The notes: generated by a model not told the origin, from the sequence alone. A stretch of DNA of 64,000 nt from a bacterium (GCA_009995545.1 JAACPI010000001.1:2475-66474); one strand, 5' to 3'. Counted from the first letter of the stretch, positions 2,453 to 52,273 are shown. Made by a program: numbers and translations.

Positions 2453-2590
2453 TGTAGGTTTGTTTTTAACGTAAAGTATTTCTAGCTGGAAAAGGTATTT
2501 TGGGTCTAGTATTAGTACGCAAAAATACCCCAGAGCTACCTTCCTTTCACTTGACTGTTCTGCTTTATATATCCTACAGTAACAAACATT

Positions 2591-3025
2591 ATGCTTAATA
2601 AACTGACTAGGCACGCACTAACTTTCTATAGAAACCACTTACCCAACGAAGAGAGGGACAAATTTGATATTTTGTATTGTATGTCTATAGCAGGGGATTA
2701 TTTAAGCAAAATAGATTTAGACTACTATAGTCCCTCTGCAGTAAAAGTGATTAAGCTTAGGGCAGCCTTGGAGGTGCTTTCATTTGCAGCGGTGGGAGAT
2801 TATGGCGATTTGGTTTTAGACGAAGTCTTTGGAAATTGCGCAGCCATTATGTTTAGTAACTTGCCTGATAATGTAGTTGCACTAAGTATTTGGGACAGTA
2901 TTTACTTACGAGGTACTTGTGATGATTTTAGCCCCGAAGACGACCCTGTTTGGACTTTACATGGTGTAGCAGAGTATCTAGAAAGAGTTGCTCCTGTTGT
3001 GAACGCAGGCTTCGTCTTAGAGTAG
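2591..3025 (+). CDS. Hypothetical protein (144 aa), GC-elevated
   Basis: ORF with no recognisable motif. Sits in the GC-shifted island and is convergent with the 862-aa gene. Confidence 0.35.
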   Translation: MLNKLTRHALTFYRNHLPNEERDKFDILYCMSIAGDYLSKIDLDYYSPSAVKVIKLRAALEVLSFAAVGDYGDLVLDEVFGNCAAIMFSNLPDNVVALSIWDSIYLRGTCDDFSPEDDPVWTLHGVAEYLERVAPVVNAGFVLE

Positions 3026-3087
3026 TGCCTACAAATGTTGTATTAGTTAAATAGTCACCTTCTTCTAAAGCCCAAGCAAGTACTTAC

Positions 3088-5676
3088 TTAAGGTGCTTGT
3101 TCCTGTTGATCCTTTATTGCTTTGTACGAATTATATAAGTAATAGTAAACGTATTCTGCTCTTTTATCTGCTACATTTCTAATTCCTTTAAGTATATTAA
3201 TAAAATCATCCCTAAAATTACTATCACTGCCTTGTGGGTATTCTTTATTGGCTAGTTCGCTTAGTTGGTCTTTTTTTGCCTCTATGGCTTTATATATTTT
3301 TTCTGTTTGAGCGTTTCGACCCAGCCTTGGGTATAAAAGCTCCGCAATGGTTCTTGGATCTAAAATGACGTTAACACCGTCTCCAAAGTTAATAGTAAAG
3401 TGCTCCATTCTTTTTTCTGCTAGTTTTGCTACTGTAGCTTCGCCGTTTCTTATTGTACTTCCAATTTTAAAACTTTCTGTTGGTTCTTGTTTTTTTACAG
3501 TGTAAAAATACTTAGTTTTAAATACAGGTTTTCCCTCTGCATCTTTTTCTTGTTTACCATTTCTGTCCAAGGATGGTACTAAAAATGCGCCCTCGAAGGG
3601 TAAGTCTTCCTCTTTTAAAATTAGGTCTGGTAATTGTAGGTTTTCAGGTGCCTCCTCACCTCCACCCTCCTCATTCTCATTAAGTACTCTCCAGTCTCCA
3701 TCTACAGGCTCTTCTTCTTGAGGTCTATTTACCTCAGGTGCTGGTCTTTGGGGTCTAATAGGAGGTACTGGTGGTGCAGGTGGGATATCTGGTTCTTCAT
3801 TGTTCCGTGGTCGTTCTGGAGCCCGCTGTGGCCTAAAATTTGCGGGTCCCTCGTATTTATCGCCAAATACAACCAACCCTTCATTTACAGTTGACCATAC
3901 TTCCGCCGCACTTACATAGGCAACAGAAAGCTGTACACCTGCATTTATCGCTTTAGCTATTGTAACTGCTTTATCTAAGTCTTTAAGTTGGCTAATCGCC
4001 TCTGTTTGTAAGTTATTTAAACCCTGAATTAAACCAACACCCCGGTTAAATAAATTTAGTCGTTCTTGATCTATATCTATGCTTTCAATTGGAGGGACAG
4101 GTGTATTTGTTAATAATCCATCCCAAATACCTCTCCAGGCAGAATGCAGGTTGCCTTTAGAGGCCTCTATTCCTTGTTTAAGGCTGTTTAAGGCATTTGC
4201 ATCGGTATTAACTTTATCTAGCCAATTACTCACGCTTTCGTACCCAAAACCGTGTACTCCACCTATCGTTACGCCGTTTAGATCATATGGGGCCCTGGTC
4301 ATAATTGCCTCTAGTAACTGGTCGTTACTAACTCCCAGGCTCTGTGCAGTCTCAGTGACTTGGGTTAGGACATGTGGGTTAGCCTGTAATTCTGTGTAGA
4401 TCTGTTTTATAGAATCAAATCGTAAAAGTCTCTCTTGCCCCCCGGCTGCCAGGTAAGCATCCACGTTGTTACCAAAACCGGCGCTATCGGCCGCTTTAAT
4501 TAGTTGGTGTTTTGCATAATCGTTAATTTCAACCCCACTTAATGAAAAAGAATCGCCTGTATGGGTTGGGGCCACATGCTTACTAAAAAATTCTTCGGCA
4601 TCTCCCTTCCACTGGTCTATCTGATGATTAAAATTGTCTGCTAAATCTGAAAAATGAGCGTCCTTAGATTCAAAAGCATTCTTGGCGTGTTCTGCAATTT
4701 CGGAGGCATTATCTAGGGCGGTTACAAATAAAAAGGATTTAGCGGCCCTAGAAATAGCTGAACCTATAACGTAATTTCGCTTTAACTTTTTAACTGCCCT
4801 TGCAACTTCTAACCTGCTTCTGTTAAAGGCTATTTTAACCTCTTCTGCCTTGCCCTCTTGTGCCATAGCAAAAGTTACTACACTAAGTGCATCTCTTCTT
4901 TTAGCAATCACATCATCATCTATGCTTTCGCTAAAGCCTGTAAGTGTGGCCTGAGTCATTAAATTTTGTAGTAATTTTTGTACTTGCGGCGTTTTTTCGG
5001 GTTGGTTTTGTAGTATTTGGGTGATGTCGGCAAATAGGTCTTTGTCAAAAAGCTCTATACCTAAATCTTTTACGTCAGTTCTAATCTCTTTATTTCTAGC
5101 TTTTGCTTTAAATGATTTTCGGGTAGCAATGCTTTCGGGCAGACTTAAAAAATCTGAGACAACTCGCCAGGCAGCTTTTAATACTTTTTTCTCGCCTAGG
5201 GCCTTTTCTATTTCTCTTGTTCTGCCTGAAACTTTTCTTTGGTAAAACTCCTGGGCACCTGCACCCCTTTGATCCACTTTTCTTACTTCCATTGCCCCAG
5301 AAACTGTTCCAGTTATAGCACCAACTATACCTGCAAGTGGGGGACCGCCCACCGTTCCAAATATAAGTTCTACTCCTGATCTGGCTGCTATTCCTGCAGC
5401 CACTGGTAAAGCAATTTCAGCAACTTTACCTGCTATCCTTGCTGCCTTGTTGCCTGGATGGGCCCTTTGTTCATAGTTGTCTGTGACATTTTCTGCATTA
5501 ACTAAATCAAAAAGGCTTTGAAGTGACTCACTGGCATCTTGAGGTATGCGGTAATTTCTTTTTACAACTTCGTGGATCGAGTCGGGGGCGGTCGGGGAGT
5601 AGCTTCCTTTGTGATCTGGTCCCTCGGTTGCGCTATCACGTAAGTTTTGAGCAATAAACCTTACTACTTCTGACAT
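3088..5676 (-). CDS. Large hypothetical protein (862 aa) with a glycine-zipper hydrophobic segment near the N-terminus and a Pro-rich hinge (PPAPPVPPIRPQRPAPE) before a roughly 200-aa C-terminal domain
   Basis: Long ORF of about 45-50% GC against a roughly 33% background. Its ATG overlaps the stop of the upstream 157-aa ORF (TAAATG). No catalytic motif recognised. Confidence 0.55.
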   Translation of the reverse strand: MSEVVRFIAQNLRDSATEGPDHKGSYSPTAPDSIHEVVKRNYRIPQDASESLQSLFDLVNAENVTDNYEQRAHPGNKAARIAGKVAEIALPVAAGIAARSGVELIFGTVGGPPLAGIVGAITGTVSGAMEVRKVDQRGAGAQEFYQRKVSGRTREIEKALGEKKVLKAAWRVVSDFLSLPESIATRKSFKAKARNKEIRTDVKDLGIELFDKDLFADITQILQNQPEKTPQVQKLLQNLMTQATLTGFSESIDDDVIAKRRDALSVVTFAMAQEGKAEEVKIAFNRSRLEVARAVKKLKRNYVIGSAISRAAKSFLFVTALDNASEIAEHAKNAFESKDAHFSDLADNFNHQIDQWKGDAEEFFSKHVAPTHTGDSFSLSGVEINDYAKHQLIKAADSAGFGNNVDAYLAAGGQERLLRFDSIKQIYTELQANPHVLTQVTETAQSLGVSNDQLLEAIMTRAPYDLNGVTIGGVHGFGYESVSNWLDKVNTDANALNSLKQGIEASKGNLHSAWRGIWDGLLTNTPVPPIESIDIDQERLNLFNRGVGLIQGLNNLQTEAISQLKDLDKAVTIAKAINAGVQLSVAYVSAAEVWSTVNEGLVVFGDKYEGPANFRPQRAPERPRNNEEPDIPPAPPVPPIRPQRPAPEVNRPQEEEPVDGDWRVLNENEEGGGEEAPENLQLPDLILKEEDLPFEGAFLVPSLDRNGKQEKDAEGKPVFKTKYFYTVKKQEPTESFKIGSTIRNGEATVAKLAEKRMEHFTINFGDGVNVILDPRTIAELLYPRLGRNAQTEKIYKAIEAKKDQLSELANKEYPQGSDSNFRDDFINILKGIRNVADKRAEYVYYYLYNSYKAIKDQQEQAP

Positions 5677-6150
5677 TTAGTTACTAAAATTTAACTTAGA
5701 CCTAAGCATCTGGTACTGATCTAGGGTTTTTTGGTCGTCCTCGCCTAAAGCGTCTACATCAATTAAAGATAAGAGCTTTGTACATATTTCTCTAACTTTT
5801 TGTTTTGTTTCTGGGGTTTTAATTTTAGTATCAGCAAAGTTTAAGAAATCGTTAATTTGGGTTTTAAGTGCGAGTATTTTAATTTTATTCACCTCTTTTA
5901 CTGTAATATCCGTAAAACCCGGCACTAGTTGAACTATTTTGTTCTGTACTTCCAGTGGGTCTTTGAGTGTGCTTAGACTATCCATTTGTTCCTTTGTAAT
6001 AAGGTTCATTTCTTGACAAATTACAAGGGCATTTTTAAAGGCTAAACGTGCTGCTTGAAGGTTAAAGATGTCTTGTTCTTCTCTAGATAAACCATCTAAT
6101 CCAAGAATACTTAATAAAGAATATTGAGCTATGAGGGCAGTAAAACTCAT
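5677..6150 (-). CDS. Small predicted all-helical protein (157 aa), translationally coupled partner of the 862-aa protein
   Basis: Its stop codon abuts the start codon of the downstream gene. No TM segment or known motif. Confidence 0.5.
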   Translation of the reverse strand: MSFTALIAQYSLLSILGLDGLSREEQDIFNLQAARLAFKNALVICQEMNLITKEQMDSLSTLKDPLEVQNKIVQLVPGFTDITVKEVNKIKILALKTQINDFLNFADTKIKTPETKQKVREICTKLLSLIDVDALGEDDQKTLDQYQMLRSKLNFSN

Positions 6151-6398
6151 TAGTTAAATTTTATCCTAAACTGGCTAATTGTCGACTGATTTAGGCATTA
6201 GAAATTCTAAATGCTGATCATTATATGGCTAGATGATCGGTCTAGATCTCACTTATTTCAGCTTAATCCTTTTGTTAGGCTTATATTTATAGTACTTATC
6301 ACTTGACAAAATACCCTATAATATGTATGATAGTGTTAATAATAAGATTTTTTCTTTGATATATAGGTTCTGCCTATGTTTAAAAGGATACAAAAACT

Positions 6399-7088
6399 AT
6401 GAAAAATTTGATTTTAACCAGTTTAATAGCGTTAGGATTTCTTGTAACAACTAGTGCTGTAAGTGCTAGACAGGTTTGTTTTACCCAATATGGCGGTGGA
6501 GAAACTTGTGTAAATGTTGAAGACAACTCTGATCTTGATGTTGAAAAATTAGTATCTAAAGAAGATATTTCTGACAGTTACAAAGATCACTTAAAGTCTA
6601 GTGAGCATATGTTTAATGCTGAAGATTACGTTTACTTTAGAATTAAAGTTAAAAACAAAGGTGACGTTGATTTAAAAGACGTTAAAGTAAAAGATGTTTT
6701 ACCTAACTTTGTTAAATACGACAAAACTTTAACTGATCAAGATTCTGATGTTAATGGTAACGAGGTTACTTACAATATTGGTTCGTTAAATGTTGGAAAC
6801 GATGTAGTAATAAAAGTTAGAACTAAAGTAGTAGAAGAGGCTGATCTACCAGCTGATGACAAAGTTTGTATAACAAACGTTGCGGAGGCTAAGGGTTATA
6901 GAAAAGACAATAATAAAAAGGAAAGCGATAGTGGCTATGCAAACTTCTGTATAGATCTACCCGCTGTACTTGGAACCCCTACTCAGTTACCTAAAGCAGG
7001 TCCAGAAAGCACTTTAGCTTTAATAGGAGCTTTAGTACTAAGTACCGGGGTAATTTACAACCGTAAAGTTGTAAAGTCAGTTAAATAA
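6399..7088 (+). CDS. Secreted cell-surface protein with an LPKAG sorting signal (likely sortase substrate)
   Basis: N-terminal signal peptide (MKNLILTSLIALGFLVTTSAVSA). The C-terminus is LPKAGPESTLALIGALVLSTGVIYNRKVVKSVK: motif, hydrophobic stretch, then basic tail. Confidence 0.6.
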   Translation: MKNLILTSLIALGFLVTTSAVSARQVCFTQYGGGETCVNVEDNSDLDVEKLVSKEDISDSYKDHLKSSEHMFNAEDYVYFRIKVKNKGDVDLKDVKVKDVLPNFVKYDKTLTDQDSDVNGNEVTYNIGSLNVGNDVVIKVRTKVVEEADLPADDKVCITNVAEAKGYRKDNNKKESDSGYANFCIDLPAVLGTPTQLPKAGPESTLALIGALVLSTGVIYNRKVVKSVK

Positions 7089-7156: not shown

Positions 7157-7888
7157 ATGAAAGACAGAATAATATTTATAATCTCATTAATAATAGTTAT
7201 CCTTGGTATTTCTTATCTAGGTTACACCGCTTACAAATTTTTTAATCGTAAGGGTAATAATACTAATAACAATCAAAACAATAATAATATTATTGTAGAA
7301 AAAAAGGATATATTTAACGTTAAGGGAAGTACAAATAAAGACATTATTGGTGAAGATTTAAATAAAGGAGATCAGGTTAGTTTAAAAATTGAACTAGAAA
7401 ATTCCACAGACGAAAGAGCTGAATACAGCTACGAAGGAAGAATATATAAAGTAGAAGGTCTATACACCTTTCCTAATGTGGATTCACAGATTCCTATAAA
7501 TGTTTTTGCTTTACCTGTTACTTTAGACAAAAAAAGTGCTAATGAGTACGTTTACCCTTACACTGTCGAGGATTGTGGTGACTACTTTATAGCCATTGCT
7601 AGCAGTGATTACTGGAAACAGGGAAAAGGTAATATGGCCTATGGTTATTTTAATGCAACTTGTAATGAATCAAATGCTGTTAATTCAGGTCTAACAAGTT
7701 CAGACAATAATAGGGTTAAAAGCCCTCTGGCTGATAAAGTTTTGGGTGCAACCACAAAAGGTGGACAAACCGTAAGTGAATTACCTAAAGCAGGTCCAGC
7801 AGAGACTTTTAGCTTAATTGGTGCGGTACTACTTGGATTAGGTTTAATATATAATCTAAGGATTAATAAAACCGGATCTAGGATCTAG
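7157..7888 (+). CDS. Secreted or membrane protein with an LPKAG sorting signal (paralogous C-terminus to 6399-7088)
   Basis: N-terminal TM/signal segment and Asn-rich linker. The C-terminus is ELPKAGPAETFSLIGAVLLGLGLIYNLRINKTGSRI. Confidence 0.6.
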   Translation: MKDRIIFIISLIIVILGISYLGYTAYKFFNRKGNNTNNNQNNNNIIVEKKDIFNVKGSTNKDIIGEDLNKGDQVSLKIELENSTDERAEYSYEGRIYKVEGLYTFPNVDSQIPINVFALPVTLDKKSANEYVYPYTVEDCGDYFIAIASSDYWKQGKGNMAYGYFNATCNESNAVNSGLTSSDNNRVKSPLADKVLGATTKGGQTVSELPKAGPAETFSLIGAVLLGLGLIYNLRINKTGSRI

Positions 7889-8102: not shown

Positions 8103-9371
8103 ATGGAAAATAATACACCTACTAGAAGAGTTACCAGAACCAGCTCTAGTTCTAGATCTAGATCTACAACCCCTTCTAGACCCCCCAGAAGTAATAACGA
8201 TAATAACAATAGACAAAATATTGACGAGCAGTTTGTTTCTAATCCTGATTTTCAAGACACTATAGCGGTTGAAGGCCATTTAGAGTTTATGCAAGAGTAC
8301 GGTATTTTAAGGCAAATAATTCCTGCTTTGGATCCAGACGTACCTCACGATGTTTATGTTAGTCAAAGCCAAATTAAAAAACTAGGGCTTAGAAAAGGCG
8401 ACTTATTAAAAGGTTTAGCCCGAAAACCTAAAGAAGGTGAGAGATACCTTTCTTTATTAAAGGTAGAGACGGTTCAGGGAATGGATCCTGTTCTTGCTCA
8501 AAAAAGACCTCAATTTGCAAGACTTACGCCTATTTTTCCTACAGAAAGAATACTTTTAGAAACCGAACCTGCCGTTTTAAGTACCCGGTTAATCGACCTA
8601 GTGGCTCCTGTAGGAAAAGGCCAAAGAGGTATGATTGTTGCACCTCCAAAGGCTGGTAAAACATGGCTTTTACAGGAAATAGCCTCGGGTGTTACTAAAA
8701 ATTTCCCTTCAGCTCACCTTATGGTAGTGCTAATAGGGGAGAGGCCCGAAGAAGTTACCGATATGCAAAGAAAAGTTACCGGAGAAGTTGTTGCCAGTAA
8801 TTTTGATCAACACGCGGAAGACCAAACCAGAGTTGCCGAATTAGCTTTAGAAAGAGCTAAAAGAAGAGCCGAAACGGGTGAGGACGTCGTTATTTTATTA
8901 GACTCTATTACGAGATTAGCAAGGGCCTACAACTTAGTTGTTCCACCAAGTGGGCGAACCTTAAGTGGTGGTTTAGACCCAGTATCTCTGTATCCCCCAA
9001 AGCATTTCTTTGGTGCTGCCCGAAATTTTGAAGAGGGTGGTTCCTTAACTATCTTAGGTACTGCACTTGTTGATACAGGTTCCAAAATGGATGATGTTAT
9101 TTACGAGGAGTTTAAAGGTACTGGTAATATGGAACTTCACTTAGACAGAGCTTTAAGTGAAAGAAGAATTTACCCCGCAATAGACATTAAACGTTCTGGT
9201 ACTAGACACGAAGAGTTACTGTTTAGTAAAGAAGATTTAGAAAAGATATTTACCTTTAGAAGAATGATTGACCTTTTAGGTGCCGACGAGGCTACCCAAT
9301 TGGTAATTGATAGACTTAAAAAAGGTAAAACCAATTTAGAGTTTCTTTCTGCCCTGCAAAACGGCGGGTAG
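8103..9371 (+). CDS. rho: Transcription termination factor Rho with a low-complexity Ser/Arg/Asn-rich N-terminal extension
   Basis: GQRGMIVAPPKAGKT Walker A and RecA-like core. The C-terminus (RIYPAIDIKRSGTRHEELL) is typical of Rho. Confidence 0.85.
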   Translation: MENNTPTRRVTRTSSSSRSRSTTPSRPPRSNNDNNNRQNIDEQFVSNPDFQDTIAVEGHLEFMQEYGILRQIIPALDPDVPHDVYVSQSQIKKLGLRKGDLLKGLARKPKEGERYLSLLKVETVQGMDPVLAQKRPQFARLTPIFPTERILLETEPAVLSTRLIDLVAPVGKGQRGMIVAPPKAGKTWLLQEIASGVTKNFPSAHLMVVLIGERPEEVTDMQRKVTGEVVASNFDQHAEDQTRVAELALERAKRRAETGEDVVILLDSITRLARAYNLVVPPSGRTLSGGLDPVSLYPPKHFFGAARNFEEGGSLTILGTALVDTGSKMDDVIYEEFKGTGNMELHLDRALSERRIYPAIDIKRSGTRHEELLFSKEDLEKIFTFRRMIDLLGADEATQLVIDRLKKGKTNLEFLSALQNGG

Positions 9372-9524
9372 AAGGATAACTCATAATTTTTCTTTATCTG
9401 TAAAAAAATGAGATAATAGAGAAATGTATTGTGGAGTGTCCTTAAAACCTAGGTATACCGTGGTTCAAGTTTTATACCCAATCCATATCTTATTATTTAA
9501 GGTTTTGCTTAAATTCTTCTAAAT

Positions 9525-10775
9525 GTGAAAATAAATTTATTTTCTAAAAAACCCAATTCTTTTAACCTATTTAAAAGGAAGAGGCCGCGTATTAACCAAT
9601 TGGCCTTTTCGGAGCTGCGTATTAAAGAAAAAAAGTCTATTAAGAATAAATTTAAACGTTTATTTGAATTTTTAGGTCATTTATCTTGGTATATTCAAAA
9701 AAAATATTCTAGAATCTTAAATTTTTCTTTAAAGTCGTTATCTAAAATCACCTCCTTAATATACAGTCTAAAGGGTAATATTACTGTAAGACTTATATGG
9801 GGTAGAGGGAGGCTAGGCAAGCCACTTTTACACTTAGGGACCTTGGTACTAGCATTATCCGTATTTTTGACCGGAGGTACCTTTCAGGGTAAGTTGATTG
9901 TTTTATCCAACGAGGAAAAAGAGGTATTTGTGACTTCCAGTAGTGATATTGTTCCCCAGTCAGTTTTGCTAACGACCTCAAGACCTGCTTTAGATCGAGA
10001 CTCTGTTACTCAATACACTGTCAAGCCAGGGGATACCCTGGGGTCTATTGGAAAAAAGTTTGGCGTGACCACGGATACAGTTAGGTATGCTAATAATATT
10101 TCAGATATCGGATATTTAAAGGTAGGTCAGGTATTGGAAATCCCTCCAGTAAATGGGGTAGTGTACGAGGTTAAATCTGGAGATACCTTAGCAAGCCTAT
10201 CTACAAAGTTTAAAGTTGCCGAACAAGCAATTGCCGACTTTAACTACCTAAGTAAGCCTTTTACTTTAACAAAGGGGCAGACATTGGTTCTACCCGATGC
10301 TAACATTCCCTCCCCAGTAGTAGCAATTGTTCCTACTCCTGTTTCTGGGCAAGTCAGTGGTGATTACTATACGGGGGCGGCTTATGGGTATATTCCCTAT
10401 TCAAGCACGGGTAGAAAAGGTACAGGCACATTTATATGGCCTACAAACAACCGTACTGTTACTCAAAACTTTAGTTGGTATCACCCTGCGATGGACATCG
10501 CTGTTCCGAGTCCTATATATGCTAGTGATTCCGGTGTAGTAGTACGTAGTGGGTGGTGGACTAATGGTTATGGTTTTGCGGTACAAATTGATCACAGAAA
10601 TGGATATGTTACTACATACGCACATATGTCAGTACTACAAGTTACAGTAGGTCAGGAGGTTGATCAGGGCAATGTTATTGGCCAAATGGGAAGTACCGGG
10701 AGAAGTACAGGTCCCCATGTTCACTTTACTATTCAAAAGAACGGGTCCTTTGTTGATCCCGCGGGGTATTTTTAA
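9525..10775 (+). CDS. Membrane-anchored peptidoglycan hydrolase with 2x LysM and a C-terminal M23 peptidase domain
   Basis: Two LysM repeats (YTVKPGDTLGSIGKKFGV... and YEVKSGDTLASLSTKFKV...). The M23 region carries HxxxD...HxH (HPAMDIA...GPHVHF). Basic N-terminus plus one TM helix. The true start is uncertain. Confidence 0.75.
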   Translation: MKINLFSKKPNSFNLFKRKRPRINQLAFSELRIKEKKSIKNKFKRLFEFLGHLSWYIQKKYSRILNFSLKSLSKITSLIYSLKGNITVRLIWGRGRLGKPLLHLGTLVLALSVFLTGGTFQGKLIVLSNEEKEVFVTSSSDIVPQSVLLTTSRPALDRDSVTQYTVKPGDTLGSIGKKFGVTTDTVRYANNISDIGYLKVGQVLEIPPVNGVVYEVKSGDTLASLSTKFKVAEQAIADFNYLSKPFTLTKGQTLVLPDANIPSPVVAIVPTPVSGQVSGDYYTGAAYGYIPYSSTGRKGTGTFIWPTNNRTVTQNFSWYHPAMDIAVPSPIYASDSGVVVRSGWWTNGYGFAVQIDHRNGYVTTYAHMSVLQVTVGQEVDQGNVIGQMGSTGRSTGPHVHFTIQKNGSFVDPAGYF

Positions 10776-14613: not shown

Positions 14614-17600
14614 TTACTCTGTGTCTACTGTCGTTCCGTCTGAAGTTTTAAGCCCTTCTAAGGGAGCGACTGCGTTATTATCGTCTTCTACACTTATTAT
14701 CATCCAACTAAACATTATGTCTTTTTCTGACTTTACTGGCACTTCAATCTTAAATTTTTCCCCCTTATATTTTTCTGTCACAGCTAATGGATATTCTACT
14801 AGACTTTCTGGGGTTACAATGACTAAGGAGTTTTCGGCAATTCTACTGGTGAGGATTTCTATTTCTTGGCTACCCGCTTTTATAGTAGCTCTTCCAGCTG
14901 TATATAGTTGGTTTGAGCTGTCTTTATTTGCATTGTCTGCCGTCGTCTTGTAGCTTTCTTCGGTTATACTATATACATCCGCAACGTACTTCTTGGCTTT
15001 TATAGTGCCATCTTTTTCTATAGTTATTAGTCCGTTAAATATATCTATATTTTCGGAATTGGCTGAATTTTGGATATATAATTTTGAGCCTAAGCTACTG
15101 ATTGACCCTTGTGCTGCATCTATCATTATTAACCCTATATTGACTTTATTTGTTATAGTTAAATTTTTAGATGTTGTAGATCCTATAACTTGTAAGTCTT
15201 TGTATGCTATTAGATCCGAGTCACTGGTTACGGCGTTTTTAATCTCCTCCCAAACCCAATTATTGTCTGCTGATGCATTTATTTGATTCCGTTTTATTTC
15301 ATTTAACGATATGTTAATGGCTGAATTTTGCTCAATAAATGAGACCCTTGTTTCTATTTCTTTAATTCTCTTTTTGTTGTCTTCTGTTTCTTTTTGACTA
15401 GCTTTTTCACTTAATAATGCATTGACGTCTTTAATTTTTGAATTTTGAATACCTAACGTGTCCGTTACATAATCTGGCAGGTATTTAAATTGATCTACTG
15501 TTTCCTTGGTATCCAGGATTATGCCTTGTTGCTGTTGAATTGCTTTTACCAACAAAGTGGGTATTCTTGAGTAGTTTATTCCCATGTAACCATCCACTTT
15601 ATTGGTAAACACTATTTCTGGGAATATTTTAGCTGTTTGTTGTGCAATCAAACCAATATCGGTATTACTCGGTTGTCCTATCCAGTTAAAGGTGTAGGTC
15701 TTAAGATTTAAAACCTTTTCCAAAGTTGCGTCGGTTAGGGGTGATAAGTTCTCTTTTAAACGTAGGTCTGAAGATGAGGTTGTCAGGGTACCGTCCGCGG
15801 TTAGGTTTAGGTCATTTGCATACGCCCCTGAGCTTACTGAGCTGAATCTAGCGTTACCTGCTACGTCTAATCTCTCTCCTGGTGTTGTACTTCCTACACC
15901 CAAATTTCCGTCATACCCAATTGATATTACCGTGTTTGTACCTGTTGTAGTTCCTGTACCTATTCTTAAGTAGTCGTTATTATTCCCCAAACTGTCATTT
16001 ACATTAGCCAACCAGAAATCCGTCTCTAGGGGTGTACTTGCATTAAATATCATTGACCCGTTATCTCTGTTAAGTGTGATATTTTCTGTAAAAGTATTAG
16101 TGCCTGAAAATGTTTGTGATGAGCCAAGTAGTGCAAAAGTTCCGCTTGCGTCTGGTAAATTGTAAGTTCTTGGAGCTGTTAGGTTTGCTATGGTGAGCAA
16201 TCCGCGACCATCTGGGTCATAAAAGTACAGGCTTTTCCCCGACGATCCTGTAGCAGTAAAAGCATCGCCGGAAGTGACATCTCCTATGTTACTTATTCCG
16301 CTTGCGTCGTTTATTGTCCCACATATCCAGTTGCTTCCATCCCAAACTAAAAAATTCGATGCGCTACATCCTGATATTAAACTTAAGCCATCCCCGTCTA
16401 CTTCTAGTCCACTGTAGGACTGTGTGTTTTTTAGGTTTTGGCTGGTGGGTAGCTTTATTGTTATGTTGTCTGCTCCTATGGTAAGACCGTTGCCTGGTCC
16501 TATATTTAAAGTTACGCTTCCGGAGGTACCTCCTCCAGTTAGACCACTCCCTGCAGTGACACCGGTTATATCACCTGACGAACCCACTGCAGTCACCTCT
16601 TTCCACTCTAGTGTGTTGCCGGTTTGCCATGTTAAGACGTAGTCTGCACCACCGGACTGCGTCGGTAGGGTGTAAAGTAAGTTATTTGTTAAACTAGAGG
16701 GTGCCTTAAATCCGGTGTAGTTAGAACCTCCGCTTGTACTCTCCAAAAGCCTGAATTCCCCCTGATTTCCACCATTCACTGTTCCTAAACTTATCCCTTG
16801 CGTAGTTTCAAACAGAATTGAATTACCGAGAGTTGTTGTGTTTGTCATTTTTGGTATATAATTTATCGTCCCTGAACCGTCAAAACCTGACTCACCAACT
16901 CCTAAATTTTGATCTATATTCTCTAACACCGAGCTTATATTTTGATCTATATTCTCTAACACTGACTGTAAATTGTTGCTTGTAGGTGAGATATTTGTGA
17001 AATCCTCTGTATACACCCCTATTAAAGAAGATCCAGAACTAGAAGTAACATAATCCGATAAATTAACTCCTCCTATGCTAATAGCGCCTCCTGAGGGCAC
17101 CTGTATGTTGGTTACTGTTGTTAAGGTTGGGGATAGGGCAAAACTTATTCTTTTAGCACTGGATCTTGTCACGAGTATATCATTACCACTTATAAAATCT
17201 AATGCGTCCCCGTCCTTTATAACGTCACCGGAAGACCCATCTATAGTAGTTTTCCAAGAAGTAAAACCTTTGCTAGTTTCAGCCAATGCTATCTCCCCTC
17301 CATTTATGGAGATACCCGTCCCTGCGACTAAATAGTTCTCAATAGCTTGGACAGTCTCGTCACTGATATTTGTAGATATAGTTGGATTTTGAGGGTCTCC
17401 TGTAATTGAAATACCCGACCCTGCATTTAATTTGTAAACTATATTGCTCGCCGTTATAGAACCTGTACCCAGATCTAATGTCTGGCCATAAGCATTTATG
17501 GGAATATTTATTTCAAGAACTGGCGAGGTATTTATGTCTTTTGCTGCCAAAACACTACCTTTTAGGTCTAGGTTATTCTCAGTAACCGGGTTAATGTTCC

Positions 17601-18171
17601 TAACCTGTTTGTTTTTAAATGAGTTAATAAAATTAAAGGTTCTGAGGTTATATTTATTTAGTGCTGTAATTATAAGAGGTAACATCAAAATACAGGTTGT
17701 TACATAGATATGAGTTATTCTTATATTAGGAGCTTTAATTTTGGGGGTATCAATACCCCATTGAATATCGTTTACTTTATTTATTAGGGTTTTAAAGGTT
17801 TTCGTGCGAACAGTTTTTGATTTGAGTTTTACTTTATTCTCTTCCTGTGACATTAAAGCAGCCTTCTTTCTTTCTTTAAAAGCTTTTACCTCCTCAAATT
17901 TCTGAATAATTTGTGGTATCTTTAAGCTTTCTTCTTCTTGTAGTTTGTGGATTTTAACAAGTTTGTCTACTACATAGTCTGGTAGATAAGAATCCACCTG
18001 TTTTCCAGAGTATTTCCGAATCTGGTGGGGTAGTAGTCCGACCTTTATAAGGTATCTTATGCGGTTTTGTTCTTTACCAAAGCCAAAATACACACCCTTA
18101 TCTTTAGCGAGTTGTATTACTTCTGAAGTCAGAATTAAATTGTAAGTCTTGGCAGACTGATCAGAGATCAT
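14614..18171 (-). CDS. Giant membrane-anchored fibre or adhesin-like protein: N-terminal MerR-like HTH, one TM helix, Gly/Ser/Thr-rich beta-fibre, internal peptidase S74 (intramolecular chaperone autoprocessing) domain, then an approximately 260-aa C-terminal extension
   Basis: The S74 signature TSSSDLRLKENLSPLTDATLEKVLNLKTYTFNW...GLIAQQTAKIFPEIV...GYMGINYSRIPTLLVKAIQ encoded around 15480-15780 matches the phage tail-spike/endosialidase chaperone consensus (SDxRLKxNI...IAQEV..P..V). The N-terminus (YNLILTSEVIQLAKDKGVYFGFGKEQNRIRYLIKVGLLP) is MerR-like. The TM helix is IYVTTCILMLPLIITAL. Confidence 0.7.
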   Translation of the reverse strand: MISDQSAKTYNLILTSEVIQLAKDKGVYFGFGKEQNRIRYLIKVGLLPHQIRKYSGKQVDSYLPDYVVDKLVKIHKLQEEESLKIPQIIQKFEEVKAFKERKKAALMSQEENKVKLKSKTVRTKTFKTLINKVNDIQWGIDTPKIKAPNIRITHIYVTTCILMLPLIITALNKYNLRTFNFINSFKNKQVRNINPVTENNLDLKGSVLAAKDINTSPVLEINIPINAYGQTLDLGTGSITASNIVYKLNAGSGISITGDPQNPTISTNISDETVQAIENYLVAGTGISINGGEIALAETSKGFTSWKTTIDGSSGDVIKDGDALDFISGNDILVTRSSAKRISFALSPTLTTVTNIQVPSGGAISIGGVNLSDYVTSSSGSSLIGVYTEDFTNISPTSNNLQSVLENIDQNISSVLENIDQNLGVGESGFDGSGTINYIPKMTNTTTLGNSILFETTQGISLGTVNGGNQGEFRLLESTSGGSNYTGFKAPSSLTNNLLYTLPTQSGGADYVLTWQTGNTLEWKEVTAVGSSGDITGVTAGSGLTGGGTSGSVTLNIGPGNGLTIGADNITIKLPTSQNLKNTQSYSGLEVDGDGLSLISGCSASNFLVWDGSNWICGTINDASGISNIGDVTSGDAFTATGSSGKSLYFYDPDGRGLLTIANLTAPRTYNLPDASGTFALLGSSQTFSGTNTFTENITLNRDNGSMIFNASTPLETDFWLANVNDSLGNNNDYLRIGTGTTTGTNTVISIGYDGNLGVGSTTPGERLDVAGNARFSSVSSGAYANDLNLTADGTLTTSSSDLRLKENLSPLTDATLEKVLNLKTYTFNWIGQPSNTDIGLIAQQTAKIFPEIVFTNKVDGYMGINYSRIPTLLVKAIQQQQGIILDTKETVDQFKYLPDYVTDTLGIQNSKIKDVNALLSEKASQKETEDNKKRIKEIETRVSFIEQNSAINISLNEIKRNQINASADNNWVWEEIKNAVTSDSDLIAYKDLQVIGSTTSKNLTITNKVNIGLIMIDAAQGSISSLGSKLYIQNSANSENIDIFNGLITIEKDGTIKAKKYVADVYSITEESYKTTADNANKDSSNQLYTAGRATIKAGSQEIEILTSRIAENSLVIVTPESLVEYPLAVTEKYKGEKFKIEVPVKSEKDIMFSWMIISVEDDNNAVAPLEGLKTSDGTTVDTE
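16907..16972 (-). repeat. Two-copy 33-nt tandem repeat inside the fibre gene (encodes SVLENIDQNI/SVLENIDQNL)
   Basis: ttttgatctatattctctaacac is repeated with a 33-nt period. Confidence 0.8.
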
Positions 18172-47196: not shown

Positions 47197-48540
47197 TTAA
47201 TTTCCTCCGTTCAAAAAGTCGATTCGTTCCGCCTCTGACCAGTCAGTAGGGTCTACACCAAAATGATTCGCATTTGGGTTTGTCCAGTGGCTTTGCATAA
47301 AAGCAGTTTGGTCTCTTTCTCCCAATTTAACTAGAAGTGCCGTGTACGACGAATCTGAACCACTAAGATCTGTGTTACGGACCAGCTGCTTAGCTGTATT
47401 TCGGACTCTCTTTGTTCTACCTGCCACGCTAACTACACCAGCCTTGCTCTCTGTAGTCTCAGGTTCGAAGTAAAGTTGCAGAGATAAAACGCTCCTAGCG
47501 GCCTTAACCGGATCAAAGTGTCTATTTGAAAAATTTGGGTCCTGTAAGGCTTGTAGATTATTTTTATTACGTAATAGTTGCTCCACAATACCTATCCTAA
47601 ATAATTCATACTCGCTCCCCATGTTTTCTAAACTATAGCTGTAAACATCGTCTGAAATATCCGTTTGGAGTATTCCTGACTTTCCTTCATCTTCCAAATC
47701 ACAATGAATTCCCAAAATTCTGCAGGCTATCTCGTGTGCCTCTGTAATTATCTCCAGATTTGTCAGGTCAATATTTACCCCAAATAGTTGTTTTAGCTGA
47801 TTAAATAAGGCTGATTCAAAGTACTCCTGGTTTCCTGATGCTATATTACTTAACACTATTAATAGTGTTTCCGCTAGTGCCACTTCCTTATTTTTCCTGT
47901 CCCTCATCAGTTGTTCTCGATCTTGCTCCCTTCCTTTTTGTTTTGATTGGTGTGCAATCTGTACTATTCTAATAATTTTAGAAACTGGCCCGGTACGGGA
48001 TTCCATTATCTGCCTAGGTGTTTCCTCAAAGTCAGTAGGGGCTCCAAGTATTTGCATAATAGTTTCATTAGATAAAGCACTTGCCCCAGGGAAATATTTT
48101 TCCATTCTACGTGTAGAAATTGGGTGACCAAAAAGTGAACTTATTTCATCTAGTGCCCTGGGGTCTACTGTTTCTCTTTTAATTCCACTGGAAGTTCGTC
48201 TCCAAAACTCTTCCATGTGAGCCTGTCCAGTTGTATCCGCTATCCGACCTATCCGACCTATCATTATTAGGTCCTTGTCCCTGGTTACATAGGGAAGTCT
48301 CCCTGCAATTAAAGCAAACTCTCCGATTCCACTCCCGCTGTTTGCAATTTCTGAGGCTGTAACTCTTGCTAGCACGCCGTGGGTATTTAATACTGTGGCC
48401 ACATCTGTAGCTGTAGGTATAAATTCTTGGATTTCCTTATTTTCCTTTACAGGCACAATTTCTGTGCCCATTTGTACAGATTCTCTAGATATGGGTTCGT
48501 TTGGTTTGTTTGACATATTTAATGTATAAAAATCTTGCAT
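47197..48540 (-). CDS. Hypothetical protein (447 aa), GC-elevated
   Basis: ORF with no recognised motif. GC is about 40-45%. Confidence 0.5.
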   Translation of the reverse strand: MQDFYTLNMSNKPNEPISRESVQMGTEIVPVKENKEIQEFIPTATDVATVLNTHGVLARVTASEIANSGSGIGEFALIAGRLPYVTRDKDLIMIGRIGRIADTTGQAHMEEFWRRTSSGIKRETVDPRALDEISSLFGHPISTRRMEKYFPGASALSNETIMQILGAPTDFEETPRQIMESRTGPVSKIIRIVQIAHQSKQKGREQDREQLMRDRKNKEVALAETLLIVLSNIASGNQEYFESALFNQLKQLFGVNIDLTNLEIITEAHEIACRILGIHCDLEDEGKSGILQTDISDDVYSYSLENMGSEYELFRIGIVEQLLRNKNNLQALQDPNFSNRHFDPVKAARSVLSLQLYFEPETTESKAGVVSVAGRTKRVRNTAKQLVRNTDLSGSDSSYTALLVKLGERDQTAFMQSHWTNPNANHFGVDPTDWSEAERIDFLNGGN

Positions 48541-48763: not shown

Positions 48764-49420
48764 ATGCAGACAACACAGGCAGTTGTAAGTGGGGATCAGT
48801 TCCTCGGTGAATTGGAGTTTGGTATAACGTGGGATCCGTCTCGTATGGAGGAGTCCAAGACATACTTTGGTCTTCTCATCGAAGGGGCCGGCGACCAGGG
48901 AATACTAGCTTCAGAAGCCCAGGAGTTGATGAAGAAGGAGGGGCTTTGGCCTGACGTAGGGCCCAAGGCCGGGGCGGTCGTGAGATCGTACGCAGTGAAG
49001 GATGTCCGGGACGAGGGGGTCTTTTATATTCCCAAAGCCTCCAAATCCACACAAGTTGTTGAGTCAGTTGGGGAAGCCGCCGTCTCTACAGGTGACCCTG
49101 CCTCTACGGTTGAAGCCGCCGCAAAAGTTGCTGCTGAATCCGTAGAAGAGAAGTCGGCCGCTGAGTCTGTGAAAGAAGAGATTGGGTCCAAAACCCCAAC
49201 CCCTGAATTGGATTACATGCTCGCCTTGGTCGAAGGTCTTGAGTCTAGGGTTCACGAGTTGGAGCAGGTAAACAATGCTCTCACTGAGATGTTTGAACTG
49301 CTAGAGGCAAAGGTTATTTCCGGGCTCTCCAGACTTGAGGTTGAATTGGATCTCAGTATGGTGAAGGGAGATCCTCAGCCGAAGAAGCATGTTGTGCATC
49401 TGCACTTCCACGACGAGTAG
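48764..49420 (+). CDS. Hypothetical protein (218 aa) with strongly elevated GC, an Ala/Glu-rich linker, a coiled coil and a His-rich C-terminus
   Basis: Local GC is about 47-60%, the highest in the window. Ends …HVVHLHFHDE. Confidence 0.5.
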   Translation: MQTTQAVVSGDQFLGELEFGITWDPSRMEESKTYFGLLIEGAGDQGILASEAQELMKKEGLWPDVGPKAGAVVRSYAVKDVRDEGVFYIPKASKSTQVVESVGEAAVSTGDPASTVEAAAKVAAESVEEKSAAESVKEEIGSKTPTPELDYMLALVEGLESRVHELEQVNNALTEMFELLEAKVISGLSRLEVELDLSMVKGDPQPKKHVVHLHFHDE

Positions 49421-49519: not shown

Positions 49520-52273
49520 ATGTCAAAAGCACTAGCAGAATCTCAATTTAAGGGTGATCAAGAAAAGGTTTTTATAGACTTGTTTGGTAATGCTTGCGTA
49601 GAGATAGCTAACGAGGAATACTTTGATGCTTACAATAAATATCCAAAACCTACTGGTGAGGAAGACCCTCATTTTAATACTTTTTTACAATCTAGAATTT
49701 CTGTTTACCAACGAGCTTTGGAAATAGGAAAATCCTGCTTAGATAATAGATTTACAAACGACCCAGAGGTTACTTTGCAAGATCCCAAAGACGGTGTATT
49801 TAAAACCTATAAATATGACCCTGTTAGTAGGGGGGTAGTTCTCGTTAATGAAGCAGTCTCCAAACAGGGTAATAGTTTTATAGATTTTACGCTAAATTTT
49901 GGAGAAGAATCTGCCTCGGACAATTCAGATAACGGAGACTTCCGCCGATCGGAAAATGACGAGATTAACTTTTACTCTGATTATACCTTGATGCACCAAA
50001 TGCTTTCAAAGGGCATGGAAGAGTTAGGTGCTCAATATACTTTTTTTGAGGCAGCCTTAAATAAATTTAAAAGATTTGACTCCACTGGTTGGGCTACATT
50101 AAAAAACACACCCCCCATTGATATAAACTTAAAAAGGGCTAAAAACTATCTTGCGATTCTAGATAAAATGCCCTCAAATGTAGAAAAAAGCTCTTGGTTT
50201 GTAAACCAAAGGGTCTTAGATCCTTCTTTAGAGAACTGGTCAGATAGAAGTAATCAGTTGCTAGAAGAGGCTGAAATTTTGGAAGGATTTTTTAATTCTG
50301 GCCCGGAGTATAAAACTGTACGAACTTTAAACTCTGAGAATTCTTTTGCTGTAGCATTGATTGGGGAAAGATATACCCCTTCTTCATTTCCTCAAATATA
50401 TATTGACGATGTTATTGCGATTAGTAGGATAATTTATGATCTAGCTATTTCTATACCCGATCCAATTGACAGAGAAAGTGCCTTAACAAATGTTGCTAGC
50501 GAGATTTTTATTAAAAGGTCTTCTCAGTTAGTCTCTTTATTGGAATCAAGAGGCATGCCTGTTGAATTGGGGTTAAATTACTTTAGGCAGATATTACAAA
50601 AGTACATTATGCGTCTCCCGGAACAATACTGCGTAGACTTTTTTGAGGGTAGAGAAGTTGAATTTACAATGAGAAACTTACTTTATGGTAGATATAACAC
50701 TGTTCACGATGAAAGAGAAAACTCCGAACGACATTTAGCCTCTTTTTTACAGCAGTATAAACAGGGGAAGTACAAGTCAGACTCGTTGGAGTCTTTAGAA
50801 CCCGGTACCGTTAAAGAAGTTTACGCCAAACTGGTAACAGGAAAACTAGAGGGTTTTGACTCAGAAAGCACTAGAAATGCCCTTATAGCCACTTTGAGAT
50901 ATTTTCAAATCGACTACGAGGATTCTTTGCAGGTTTTTGTTCCCACCGAAGGGTCGGTTACGTGCAGAACTTTTTTTGGGTCGATTAAAGATAACTTAAA
51001 ACAGCTTTCCCCTGTGGTTATCGAAGTGTTTTCTGAAATTTACGCTTATAAAAGTCTAGTTAACGAACTTAATGAGCTTGGAAAAGCAGGTCAAATAAAA
51101 GCTGACGCCCTTTTGGTTGGAAGAATTAAAAACAAGTATTCTGGCGAGAACGTCTCTGATTTCAGATCTGGTGATAAATTATATTTAGATTTGGATGTTT
51201 TTGTTGAATGCCACTTGCCCCAGATTGCAAGAAACATTAAATCTGTAATTGAGCAAGTTTCTTACTATAGTCAGCCTTTAAGTTCCGAAAATATTATATT
51301 ATCTGTAAAAAAATGGGTTAAAGAAAGACCAGAACTGGTAAGCCCCGCGTGTGCGGCTTTTGGTTTAAGCCCTCTCCAATTAGAGCAATATATAGCTGCT
51401 AAAGTAACCTTTATAACTGTAAAATCTAAGCGCTATTTTGCAAGTAACCCTAATTTTATGTTAGTTACCCTAGAAAACTCTTGGGCAGAAAACTTAGCAG
51501 AGCAAGAAAGTAAAAAAAAAGTTGAAAAACTTGTAAATAAAGGATTCACCTGGCAGGAATTCTCTGCTTTACCCGTTATAGTGCAAAATAGGCTGGTAGA
51601 TGCTGTTTTCGAAATGCCCGATACCAAGGAAAAACAGGAATTGCTTTTAGATATCTTTTACTATCTAAGGCTTAAATATTCTATGAGAGGGCCACTAAAG
51701 TTGTTTGATGTTACAAAACAGAAATCAGAAGAGCCCTTAGTAAAAATTAAACGCATTCAGGCTGTGTCTCATTTTTCTGTTAGAGCCATTCAAGGTTTAT
51801 CTAGTGAGTCTGTACTTGCAGATTATCTTGATACCGTTTTACTAAGGGATAGACTCTTTTCTACTATAGACAGCGGCATACCCAAACCTTTTACGGGTCA
51901 GTTGGGTAAAGAACTTAGACAAGAATTTTTTACATATTATTTTGCTAAACATGGCACTAGAAAGGGAAGTGTTATACCAAAAACCCTATACAGTAAAGAC
52001 ACTATATCTTTGATGGCAAGGGATTTTGTACAAGAAAACTTAAGTATAGTCGAGGAAAAAATGGAACGGAGAAACGTAAAAATTAGAAGAGCGGAAAACC
52101 ATTATGATTTAGACCGATTTACTAATGAACTTGTAGAATATGCTGAGGATGCCTTTGAAAGAACCCGAAGGTTACTTTACGGTAATGGATACGTGGTTGA
52201 GAGAGGTTTAACAAGTAAGGTTGTTATACAAACATTAACATCTCTACTTGAGGCTTCCTTAGAAAGAATATAA
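49520..52273 (+). CDS. Large hypothetical protein (917 aa)
   Basis: Long ORF with no TM segment, no signal peptide and no nucleotide-binding or metal-binding motif visible. Confidence 0.5.
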   Translation: MSKALAESQFKGDQEKVFIDLFGNACVEIANEEYFDAYNKYPKPTGEEDPHFNTFLQSRISVYQRALEIGKSCLDNRFTNDPEVTLQDPKDGVFKTYKYDPVSRGVVLVNEAVSKQGNSFIDFTLNFGEESASDNSDNGDFRRSENDEINFYSDYTLMHQMLSKGMEELGAQYTFFEAALNKFKRFDSTGWATLKNTPPIDINLKRAKNYLAILDKMPSNVEKSSWFVNQRVLDPSLENWSDRSNQLLEEAEILEGFFNSGPEYKTVRTLNSENSFAVALIGERYTPSSFPQIYIDDVIAISRIIYDLAISIPDPIDRESALTNVASEIFIKRSSQLVSLLESRGMPVELGLNYFRQILQKYIMRLPEQYCVDFFEGREVEFTMRNLLYGRYNTVHDERENSERHLASFLQQYKQGKYKSDSLESLEPGTVKEVYAKLVTGKLEGFDSESTRNALIATLRYFQIDYEDSLQVFVPTEGSVTCRTFFGSIKDNLKQLSPVVIEVFSEIYAYKSLVNELNELGKAGQIKADALLVGRIKNKYSGENVSDFRSGDKLYLDLDVFVECHLPQIARNIKSVIEQVSYYSQPLSSENIILSVKKWVKERPELVSPACAAFGLSPLQLEQYIAAKVTFITVKSKRYFASNPNFMLVTLENSWAENLAEQESKKKVEKLVNKGFTWQEFSALPVIVQNRLVDAVFEMPDTKEKQELLLDIFYYLRLKYSMRGPLKLFDVTKQKSEEPLVKIKRIQAVSHFSVRAIQGLSSESVLADYLDTVLLRDRLFSTIDSGIPKPFTGQLGKELRQEFFTYYFAKHGTRKGSVIPKTLYSKDTISLMARDFVQENLSIVEEKMERRNVKIRRAENHYDLDRFTNELVEYAEDAFERTRRLLYGNGYVVERGLTSKVVIQTLTSLLEASLERI

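Follow-up and report, generated by a model that had tools for sequence, protein, structure and literature searches.

A vertically inherited two-gene cassette of unassigned function in a probable WWE3-like genome of the Candidate Phyla Radiation

Do two adjacent, unannotated bacterial genes encode a toxin and its adaptor, carried in on a genomic island, or something native to the genome in which they lie? The genes in question, a small partner gene for a 157-amino-acid (aa) protein and a large gene for an 862-aa protein, occupy part of a 64,000-nucleotide (nt) stretch of bacterial DNA (GCA_009995545.1 JAACPI010000001.1:2475-66474), all of which was analysed and is called the window here; positions count from its first letter. 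An earlier reading of the sequence, the original prediction, took positions 2500-6200 for an island of elevated guanine-plus-cytosine (GC) content that encodes a protein laid out like a polymorphic toxin or secreted effector, with a possible chaperone or adaptor. Our analysis leads to a different answer: two genes with no assigned function make up a cassette that has been inherited vertically, most likely in a WWE3-like genome of the Candidate Phyla Radiation (CPR).

The partner gene and the large gene as a pair

The two genes form an obligate and tightly coupled pair. We compared twelve loci, namely the window and L085, L090, L091, L092, L093, L095, L096, L097, L099, L100 and L101, and at each of them a homologous gene for a protein of 153-176 aa lies on the same strand directly 5′ of the large gene. 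The idea of a dedicated pair is thus borne out at 12/12 loci. The junctions range from -14 to +33 nt: 0 in the window and L090, +1 in L085 and L093, +5 in L091, -11 in L092, -1 in L095, -8 in L096, +33 in L097, -4 in L099, -14 in L100 and +2 in L101. Local hmmsearch recovered the partner at all loci (E = 1e-32 to 1e-56) and found one copy of each gene per locus, with no paralogues within the 64-kb window. The features around the pair are as follows.

5677-6150, minus strand: partner gene, 157 aa, all-helical product
3088-5676, minus strand: large gene, 862 aa, unannotated, member of a rare family
5674-5679, minus strand: stop/start junction, TAA followed by ATG, both open reading frames (ORFs) in the same frame
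6158-6185, minus strand: sigma-70-like promoter match, TCGACA-16-TAAAAT, consensus only and weak as evidence
2591-3025, plus strand: 144-aa ORF, an acidic orphan in convergent orientation to the large gene, with a 62-nt spacer between them

All three ORFs lie where they had been predicted, and so does the fused stop and start: the minus-strand TAA of the 157-aa ORF (5679-5677) touches the ATG of the 862-aa ORF (5676-5674), ...AGTAACTAAATGTCAG, the junction reading AGTAAC TAA ATG TCAG. No Shine-Dalgarno-like purine run is found within 30 nt 5′ of the 862-aa ATG. In the window and in L090 (L090 695-700), the two ORFs share a frame and are separated by TAA only, so that read-through of the stop codon would yield a partner-large fusion. 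This geometry is not conserved, since the other loci are offset, over the range given above, and in other frames. Upstream of the pair, the -10 element TAAAAT of the promoter match ends 7 nt from the partner ATG. The promoter is to be taken as a consensus match only, because the scan gave fewer sites than shuffled sequence did; with TAAAAT so close to the ATG and no Shine-Dalgarno sequence visible, the partner mRNA may be leaderless.

The partner proteins share the N-terminal motif F-x-LLGL-x-x-LS-x-EE and invariant Q69 and K91. The window partner is 79% identical to that of L090, where the large protein is 78% identical, and 66% identical to that of L085; identity is about 20% to the small proteins encoded 5′ of each family member (alignments A3 and A7). 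AlphaFold2 models it as eight helices, with a mean predicted local distance difference test score (pLDDT) of 90.8 and a predicted template modelling score of 0.80. Purifying selection acts on both genes: the ratio of nonsynonymous to synonymous divergence (dN/dS) lies at 0.12-0.16 for the partner and at 0.13-0.27 for the large gene, and dS comes close to saturation or exceeds it.

None of the three proteins had a credible match in Pfam, NCBIfam, PHROGs or PADLOC, and for the partner no family or fold match was found in these databases or in the PDB. The partner motif is similar to that of DUF5663 (PF18908), a family of small helical proteins with no assigned function and mostly from CPR bacteria; a weak precomputed DUF5663 match exists on the L091 partner, and hmmscan gave none at E <= 1 in nine partners. 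A defense-system assignment was rejected; PADLOC gave just a 14-bit CARF_HEPN fragment match on the partner. The Joint Genome Institute name of one partner, "CbrC/UPF0167," could not be reproduced. Searches of PDB sequences with the large protein and with both family profiles returned coiled-coil noise only (SSO1, viral fusion proteins and ACE2, at E >= 0.03), and neither the 862-aa nor the 157-aa protein has a detectable PDB relative by sequence or fold. Searches of the literature on DUF5663, on WWE3/Katanobacteria and on polymorphic toxins in CPR bacteria gave no description of the 862-aa family.

The convergent 144-aa ORF lies outside the conserved cassette. It has no family match in Pfam, NCBIfam, PHROGs or PADLOC, and its 90% cluster is limited to four sequences that are nearly identical, including a 114-aa alternative start. 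The syntenic locus L085 does not have it and carries GtrA at that position.

Composition and gene order

Is the pair, then, a recent arrival? A horizontally acquired, GC-rich genomic island would show a foreign composition and a patchy distribution among relatives, and the original prediction had put its genes at 45-50% GC. We measured 40.5% for the 144-aa ORF, 41.1% for the large gene and 33.3% for the partner gene, the last being at background level. Region 2500-6200 averages 39.7% GC against 32-34% in its immediate flanks and 36.5% over the window; this excess, which speaks for an island, places it at the 91st percentile among 3.7-kb windows, and only single 300-bp peaks within it attain 47-50%. 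The large gene ranks third of 46 ORFs in GC (z = 1.35), near the housekeeping gene rho (40.0%). Its GC by codon position is 0.55 (GC1), 0.39 (GC2) and 0.295 (GC3), so the excess sits in positions 1 and 2 and reflects a protein rich in Ala, Gly, Pro and Arg. At the third position, the 144-aa, large and partner genes have 0.366, 0.295 and 0.278 (z = 1.28, 0.14 and -0.14), compared to 0.287 ± 0.061 over the 46 ORFs. Synonymous codon usage, scored as the likelihood of synonymous choices under the usage of the window's other genes, gave z values of -0.75, -0.08 and +0.10, respectively.

Gene order points the same way. At L085, in a related genome, the genes run as in the window: an S74 protein, a TPR protein, a LysM/M23 peptidase, Rho, a 242-aa protein and a DUF11 protein. 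Beyond DUF11 stands the pair: the small gene again encodes 157 aa (66% identical), the large one 893 aa (41-44% identical from end to end). On the far side of the pair, the right-hand neighbors are unlike, GtrA and a family 4 glycosyltransferase in L085 versus the 144-aa ORF and a family 2 glycosyltransferase (GT2) in the window, and this could be taken as a sign of insertion. However, a syntenic pair at 41-66% protein identity with saturated dS implies a long vertical history, and no integrase, tRNA or repeats were found at the borders of the region in the window. The original prediction had itself held that native codon usage in a locus conserved among relatives would speak against an island, and that is what we see. 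Codon usage and synteny refute the island, to which we give almost no chance; the pair is old, vertically inherited in the window lineage and functional.

The lineage itself can be placed by Rho (8103-9371), which is closest to that of a metagenome-assembled genome of candidate division WWE3, at 67% identity; the window therefore most likely comes from a WWE3/Katanobacteria-like CPR bacterium. Its contig has also been assembled from several samples. In a distant WWE3 genome (L005), the DUF11-Rho-M23 block is kept and the pair is not present within 9 kb of rho.

Two other places in the window stand out in composition. By far the strongest outlier among the 46 ORFs is a 218-aa ORF at 48764-49420 (plus strand; 52.5% GC, GC3 0.56), which is a better island candidate than 2500-6200; neither it nor the flanking ORFs of 447 aa (47197-48540, minus strand) and 917 aa (49520-52273, plus strand) has a Pfam match. 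The other is 61001-62000, at 48% GC, which holds short ORFs only and has no Rfam match at gathering thresholds.

At the remaining loci, the neighbors are mostly housekeeping genes, among them adenylate kinase, ClpB, RmuC, PGK, CysRS, RuvA/B/C and SufB. As these neighbors differ from locus to locus, the cassette is self-contained. What lies downstream varies as well at every locus with downstream sequence (the convergent 144-aa orphan, GtrA, DeoC, adenylate kinase, integrases, Asn synthase or a PEGA/SH3 protein), and no downstream gene is conserved across the twelve loci.

Several features near the cassette deserve separate mention. A tyrosine integrase of 432-585 aa lies on the opposite strand just 3′ of the cassette in 3 of the 12 loci (L095 3252-4760, L096 11453-12751 and L101 8957-10714), and Ruv genes are near two; this may reflect either mobility or lineage synteny. 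In L085, positions 9261-9784, between the DUF11 and partner genes, hold a pair of 88-aa and 85-aa genes that the window does not have, the latter product being ParE-like (E = 0.0013). Divergent from the cassette in the window are two small surface proteins (6399-7088 and 7157-7888, both plus strand), each ending in LPKAGPE and a hydrophobic tail that resemble a sortase-type anchor. The first of these has a DUF11/CLIPPER domain; the DUF11-domain protein beside Rho and LysM/M23 is kept in L085 and in the distant WWE3 locus L005. Further along (14614-18171, minus strand), within the chromosomal block kept in L085, an 1185-aa protein carries a Peptidase_S74 (endosialidase chaperone) domain, a domain typical of phage tail spikes.

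Modular architecture of the large protein

The family of the large protein came to light in an exhaustive HMMER search, which, out of 1.84 billion cluster representatives, retrieved that of the query cluster and 12 more at E <= 1e-3; word-indexed searches, whether with the 862-aa protein or with a trimmed 13-sequence profile, returned the query's own cluster only. Metagenome-contig scans, with the single protein or a two-sequence alignment as the query, gave no relatives. HMMER matches are confined to the first ~540 residues, and only P0005 runs on to the C terminus; alignments extend the shared part to about residue 610. The segments of the window protein, all encoded on the minus strand, are these.

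aa 77-131, 5284-5448: Gly/Ala-rich helical hairpin with a GxxxG zipper (alignments A1 and A2)
aa 132-569, 3970-5283: conserved helical body (family alignments)
aa 570-611, 3844-3969: second Gly/Ala-rich hydrophobic helix followed by VVFGDKYEGP, the end of family-wide homology
aa 612-689, 3610-3843: acidic Pro-rich linker, predicted to be disordered from charge and pLDDT
aa 690-862, 3091-3609: C-terminal alpha/beta domain, lineage-specific, common to P0005 only at about 43% identity

The N terminus, acidic and variable across the family, leads into the hairpin, which is the best-conserved part, with P91, G111, P112, G119 and G123 invariant (alignment A1). AlphaFold2 models the hairpin as two helices at low pLDDT, and a strongly basic stretch, MEVRKVDQRG...RKVSGRTREIEKALGEKK, follows straight after it. 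The body consists of a helical domain, a coiled-coil spacer of variable length and a second helical domain; its motifs are G-x-GA-x-EFYQ (138-146), L(S/T)GFSE (245-250) and R310/K313, the latter two in the first domain, and Y408 and Y464 in the second. The second Gly/Ala stretch (aa 570-600) terminates a long helix, and VVFGDKYEGP behind it follows the family pattern V-x-(F/Y)-G-(D/E)-K. Both peptides quoted in the original prediction were located, the glycine-zipper segment GTVGGPPLAGIVGAITGTVSGAM at aa 107-129 and the Pro-rich hinge PPAPPVPPIRPQRPAPE at aa 632-648. The linker carries a net charge of -12 across aa 641-700 and has a pLDDT of about 26-36 with no secondary structure; in homologues it is Pro-, Gly-, Asn- or Gln-rich instead of acidic and Pro-rich. 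The C-terminal domain reaches pLDDT 60-81 in parts. In the AlphaFold2 model, residues 2-598 are helical, about 599-688 irregular and the rest an alpha/beta region, so that the predicted order of body, linker and C-terminal domain stands, with the last about 170 rather than 200 aa long.

This layout proved to be a trait of the family, which is modular: behind a conserved body of ~610 aa come a linker, flexible and of low complexity, and a C-terminal module that depends on lineage. Exchange of the module takes place exactly behind the conserved motif. P0009 and P0011, for instance, share 43% identity as far as the ADxxYGxK motif and show no relation after it. The C terminus of P0015 is a DnaJ J domain (E = 2.6e-8, 34.3 bits when scanned alone), that of P0010 a weak J domain with an HPD motif (E = 0.006) and that of P0011 a GT2 glycosyltransferase (E = 6e-6); the remaining members have tails with no recognizable domain. 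For the window C terminus, Pfam gave no match even at E <= 10, and the domain matches nothing, so the housekeeping fold that the original prediction had named as counter-evidence was not seen either.

A conserved body, a boundary motif, a linker and unrelated C-terminal modules are formally what one expects of a polymorphic effector or toxin with an adaptor, in which the helical partner would solubilize the Gly-zipper and direct an unrecognized export, and the body would deliver a variable C-terminal effector. There is more to suggest it: a dedicated small partner lies 5′ at every locus, as in LXG-Lap or translocator-chaperone pairs; the weakly hydrophobic helices, rich in Gly/Ala, look like segments that insert conditionally; toxins with a GT-A-fold glycosyltransferase exist in other bacteria; and CPR bacteria are episymbionts that need to act on host cells. 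It is because of its formally polymorphic architecture and this need of CPR bacteria that the idea keeps some weight. All the other defining features of such systems failed in testing, however. Neither a signal peptide nor LXG, WXG, PAAR, Rhs, TPS or another known trafficking domain was found, and no toxin domain occurs in any family member, as judged for the window protein and its homologues with Pfam, NCBIfam and PADLOC. The immunity gene that might have been expected beside a toxin has no candidate, since a conserved downstream gene is found at 0/12 loci; the 144-aa ORF runs convergently to the large gene and is missing in L085. Neither arrays of orphan C-terminal cassettes nor paralogues of the pair occur in the 64-kb window, and composition is native. 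Nor is the C-terminal domain hypervariable: between orthologues it diverges no faster than the body, its dN against L085 resembling that of the N-terminal body. The cassette thus bears no hallmark of secretion, toxicity or immunity, and we regard an effector as unlikely.

A narrower version, a CPR-specific delivery module for episymbiosis that forms a polymorphic effector system unrelated to known secretion-linked families, strikes us as less probable still. Here, the small protein could keep the Gly-zipper helices soluble, and upon host contact the two Gly/Ala segments could insert in a membrane and expose the exchangeable module to the host cytoplasm, be it J-like and directed at host Hsp70, a glycosyltransferase or the orphan domain of the window protein.

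The long helical body with its Gly-rich hydrophobic stretches also calls to mind a remnant of a phage tail module, that is, a tail-assembly chaperone and a tape-measure protein. Tape-measure proteins are long and helical, have Gly-rich hydrophobic segments and often carry a C-terminal add-on domain; the two genes have a suitable size and order, a tyrosine integrase is downstream in the 3 of 12 loci noted above, and phrog_18476 gives a faint match over the Gly-zipper (E = 0.034). Against this, no PHROG match is significant (none below E = 0.03), a scan of IMG/VR viral contigs, with the single protein or a two-sequence alignment as the query, gave no relatives, and at no locus do other phage genes stand beside the pair. 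Its neighbors include rho and genes for adenylate kinase, PGK, tRNA synthetases, Ruv and ClpB, and surroundings that are chromosomal and housekeeping throughout refute this reading. J-domain and GT2 tails are not tape-measure traits, and the syntenic vertical inheritance described above fits poorly with a phage remnant, which we consider highly improbable.

A possible role and likeness to known systems

What might a native pair of this kind do? We offer, tentatively but as the likeliest of the readings, a cytoplasm-facing, membrane-associated scaffold of two subunits that presents a lineage-specific module on a flexible linker. The two products would form a stoichiometric complex, in which the small protein may bind or cap the conserved N-terminal part of the large protein during its synthesis. 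Oligomerization would depend on the hairpin (aa 77-131) together with the second Gly/Ala helix (aa 570-600), and these would also attach to the cytoplasmic side of the cell membrane, as peripheral or re-entrant elements; the helical body would serve as the scaffold, and the linker would display the C-terminal module in the cytoplasm. In relatives, this module would be a J or J-like domain, suited to recruiting DnaK, or a GT2 glycosyltransferase, and here the orphan alpha/beta domain. A cytoplasmic orientation is suggested by the J and GT2 modules of homologues, which normally act in the cytoplasm, by the lack of a signal peptide in the 862-aa protein, with its acidic, polar N terminus, and by the basic stretch after the hairpin.

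Several observations weigh against this scaffold. Best 19-mers in all 13 family members have Kyte-Doolittle values of 1.3-1.9 and Hessa apparent free energies of +1.8 to +7.1 kcal/mol; the window protein has maxima of 1.5-1.6 and a best 19-mer of +5.6 kcal/mol. Hydrophobic segments this weak are borderline and probably not classical transmembrane helices, and with such Hessa values membrane association is a guess; the Gly/Ala segments may be re-entrant, peripheral, conditionally inserting or oligomerizing helices. The model of the 862-aa protein is poor overall (mean pLDDT 54), and no structural match ties either protein to any function. As for the modules, the J domain of P0015 is without the HPD motif, and that of P0010 falls under the Pfam cut-off. 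A J-like window C terminus, suggested by a MAFFT alignment under the P0015 J domain, was rejected, as hmmscan found no DnaJ and hhalign gave a probability of 0.1. What probability the scaffold and its rivals leave belongs to functions that cannot be named.

Neither protein could be placed in a known family or system, and we therefore file the pair outside the known kinds; this novelty comes from a lack of matches and does not imply a new mechanism. CPR genomes hold many unannotated genes, and what sets this pair apart is only that its two genes are strictly paired and coupled and that C-terminal modules are exchanged. Even so, a strict pair conserved across several divergent uncultivated lineages is a well-defined target among such genes, and the swap of modules behind a fixed motif offers a concrete experimental handle.

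How does the cassette compare with systems already described? In type III secretion, a translocator and its class II chaperone (IpgC-IpaB, SicA-SipB) are encoded much as here, with the gene for a helical chaperone of ~155-170 aa directly upstream of a hairpin-containing cargo. LXG toxins, too, have small helical partner genes upstream. The features by which class II chaperones or the LXG-Lap pairs of type VII secretion systems are recognized, a TPR-like fold or a Lap/WXG family match in the small protein and LXG in the cargo, were not found in the cassette. Polymorphic toxins with immunity proteins (CdiA-CT, Rhs, LXG and MafB) share with it the conserved N-terminal body, the boundary motif and the unrelated C-terminal modules; unlike them, the cassette is without a trafficking domain, a toxin domain or, over the 12 loci, an immunity gene, is native and single-copy, and those of its family's C-terminal modules that can be identified are J and GT2 domains.

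Membrane-tethered J-domain proteins, such as DjlA of E. coli and ZipN/Ftn2/ARC6 of cyanobacteria and plastids, offer a last comparison, one of layout rather than of sequence or fold. DjlA and ZipN are not known to have an obligate small partner, whereas the cassette always has one, and the J domain of the cassette is C-terminal and confined to 1-2 of the 13 members, the window C terminus being a different orphan domain. What they have in common with P0015 and P0010 is the combination, in one polypeptide, of hydrophobic anchor segments, a long helical or linker region and a J or J-like domain.

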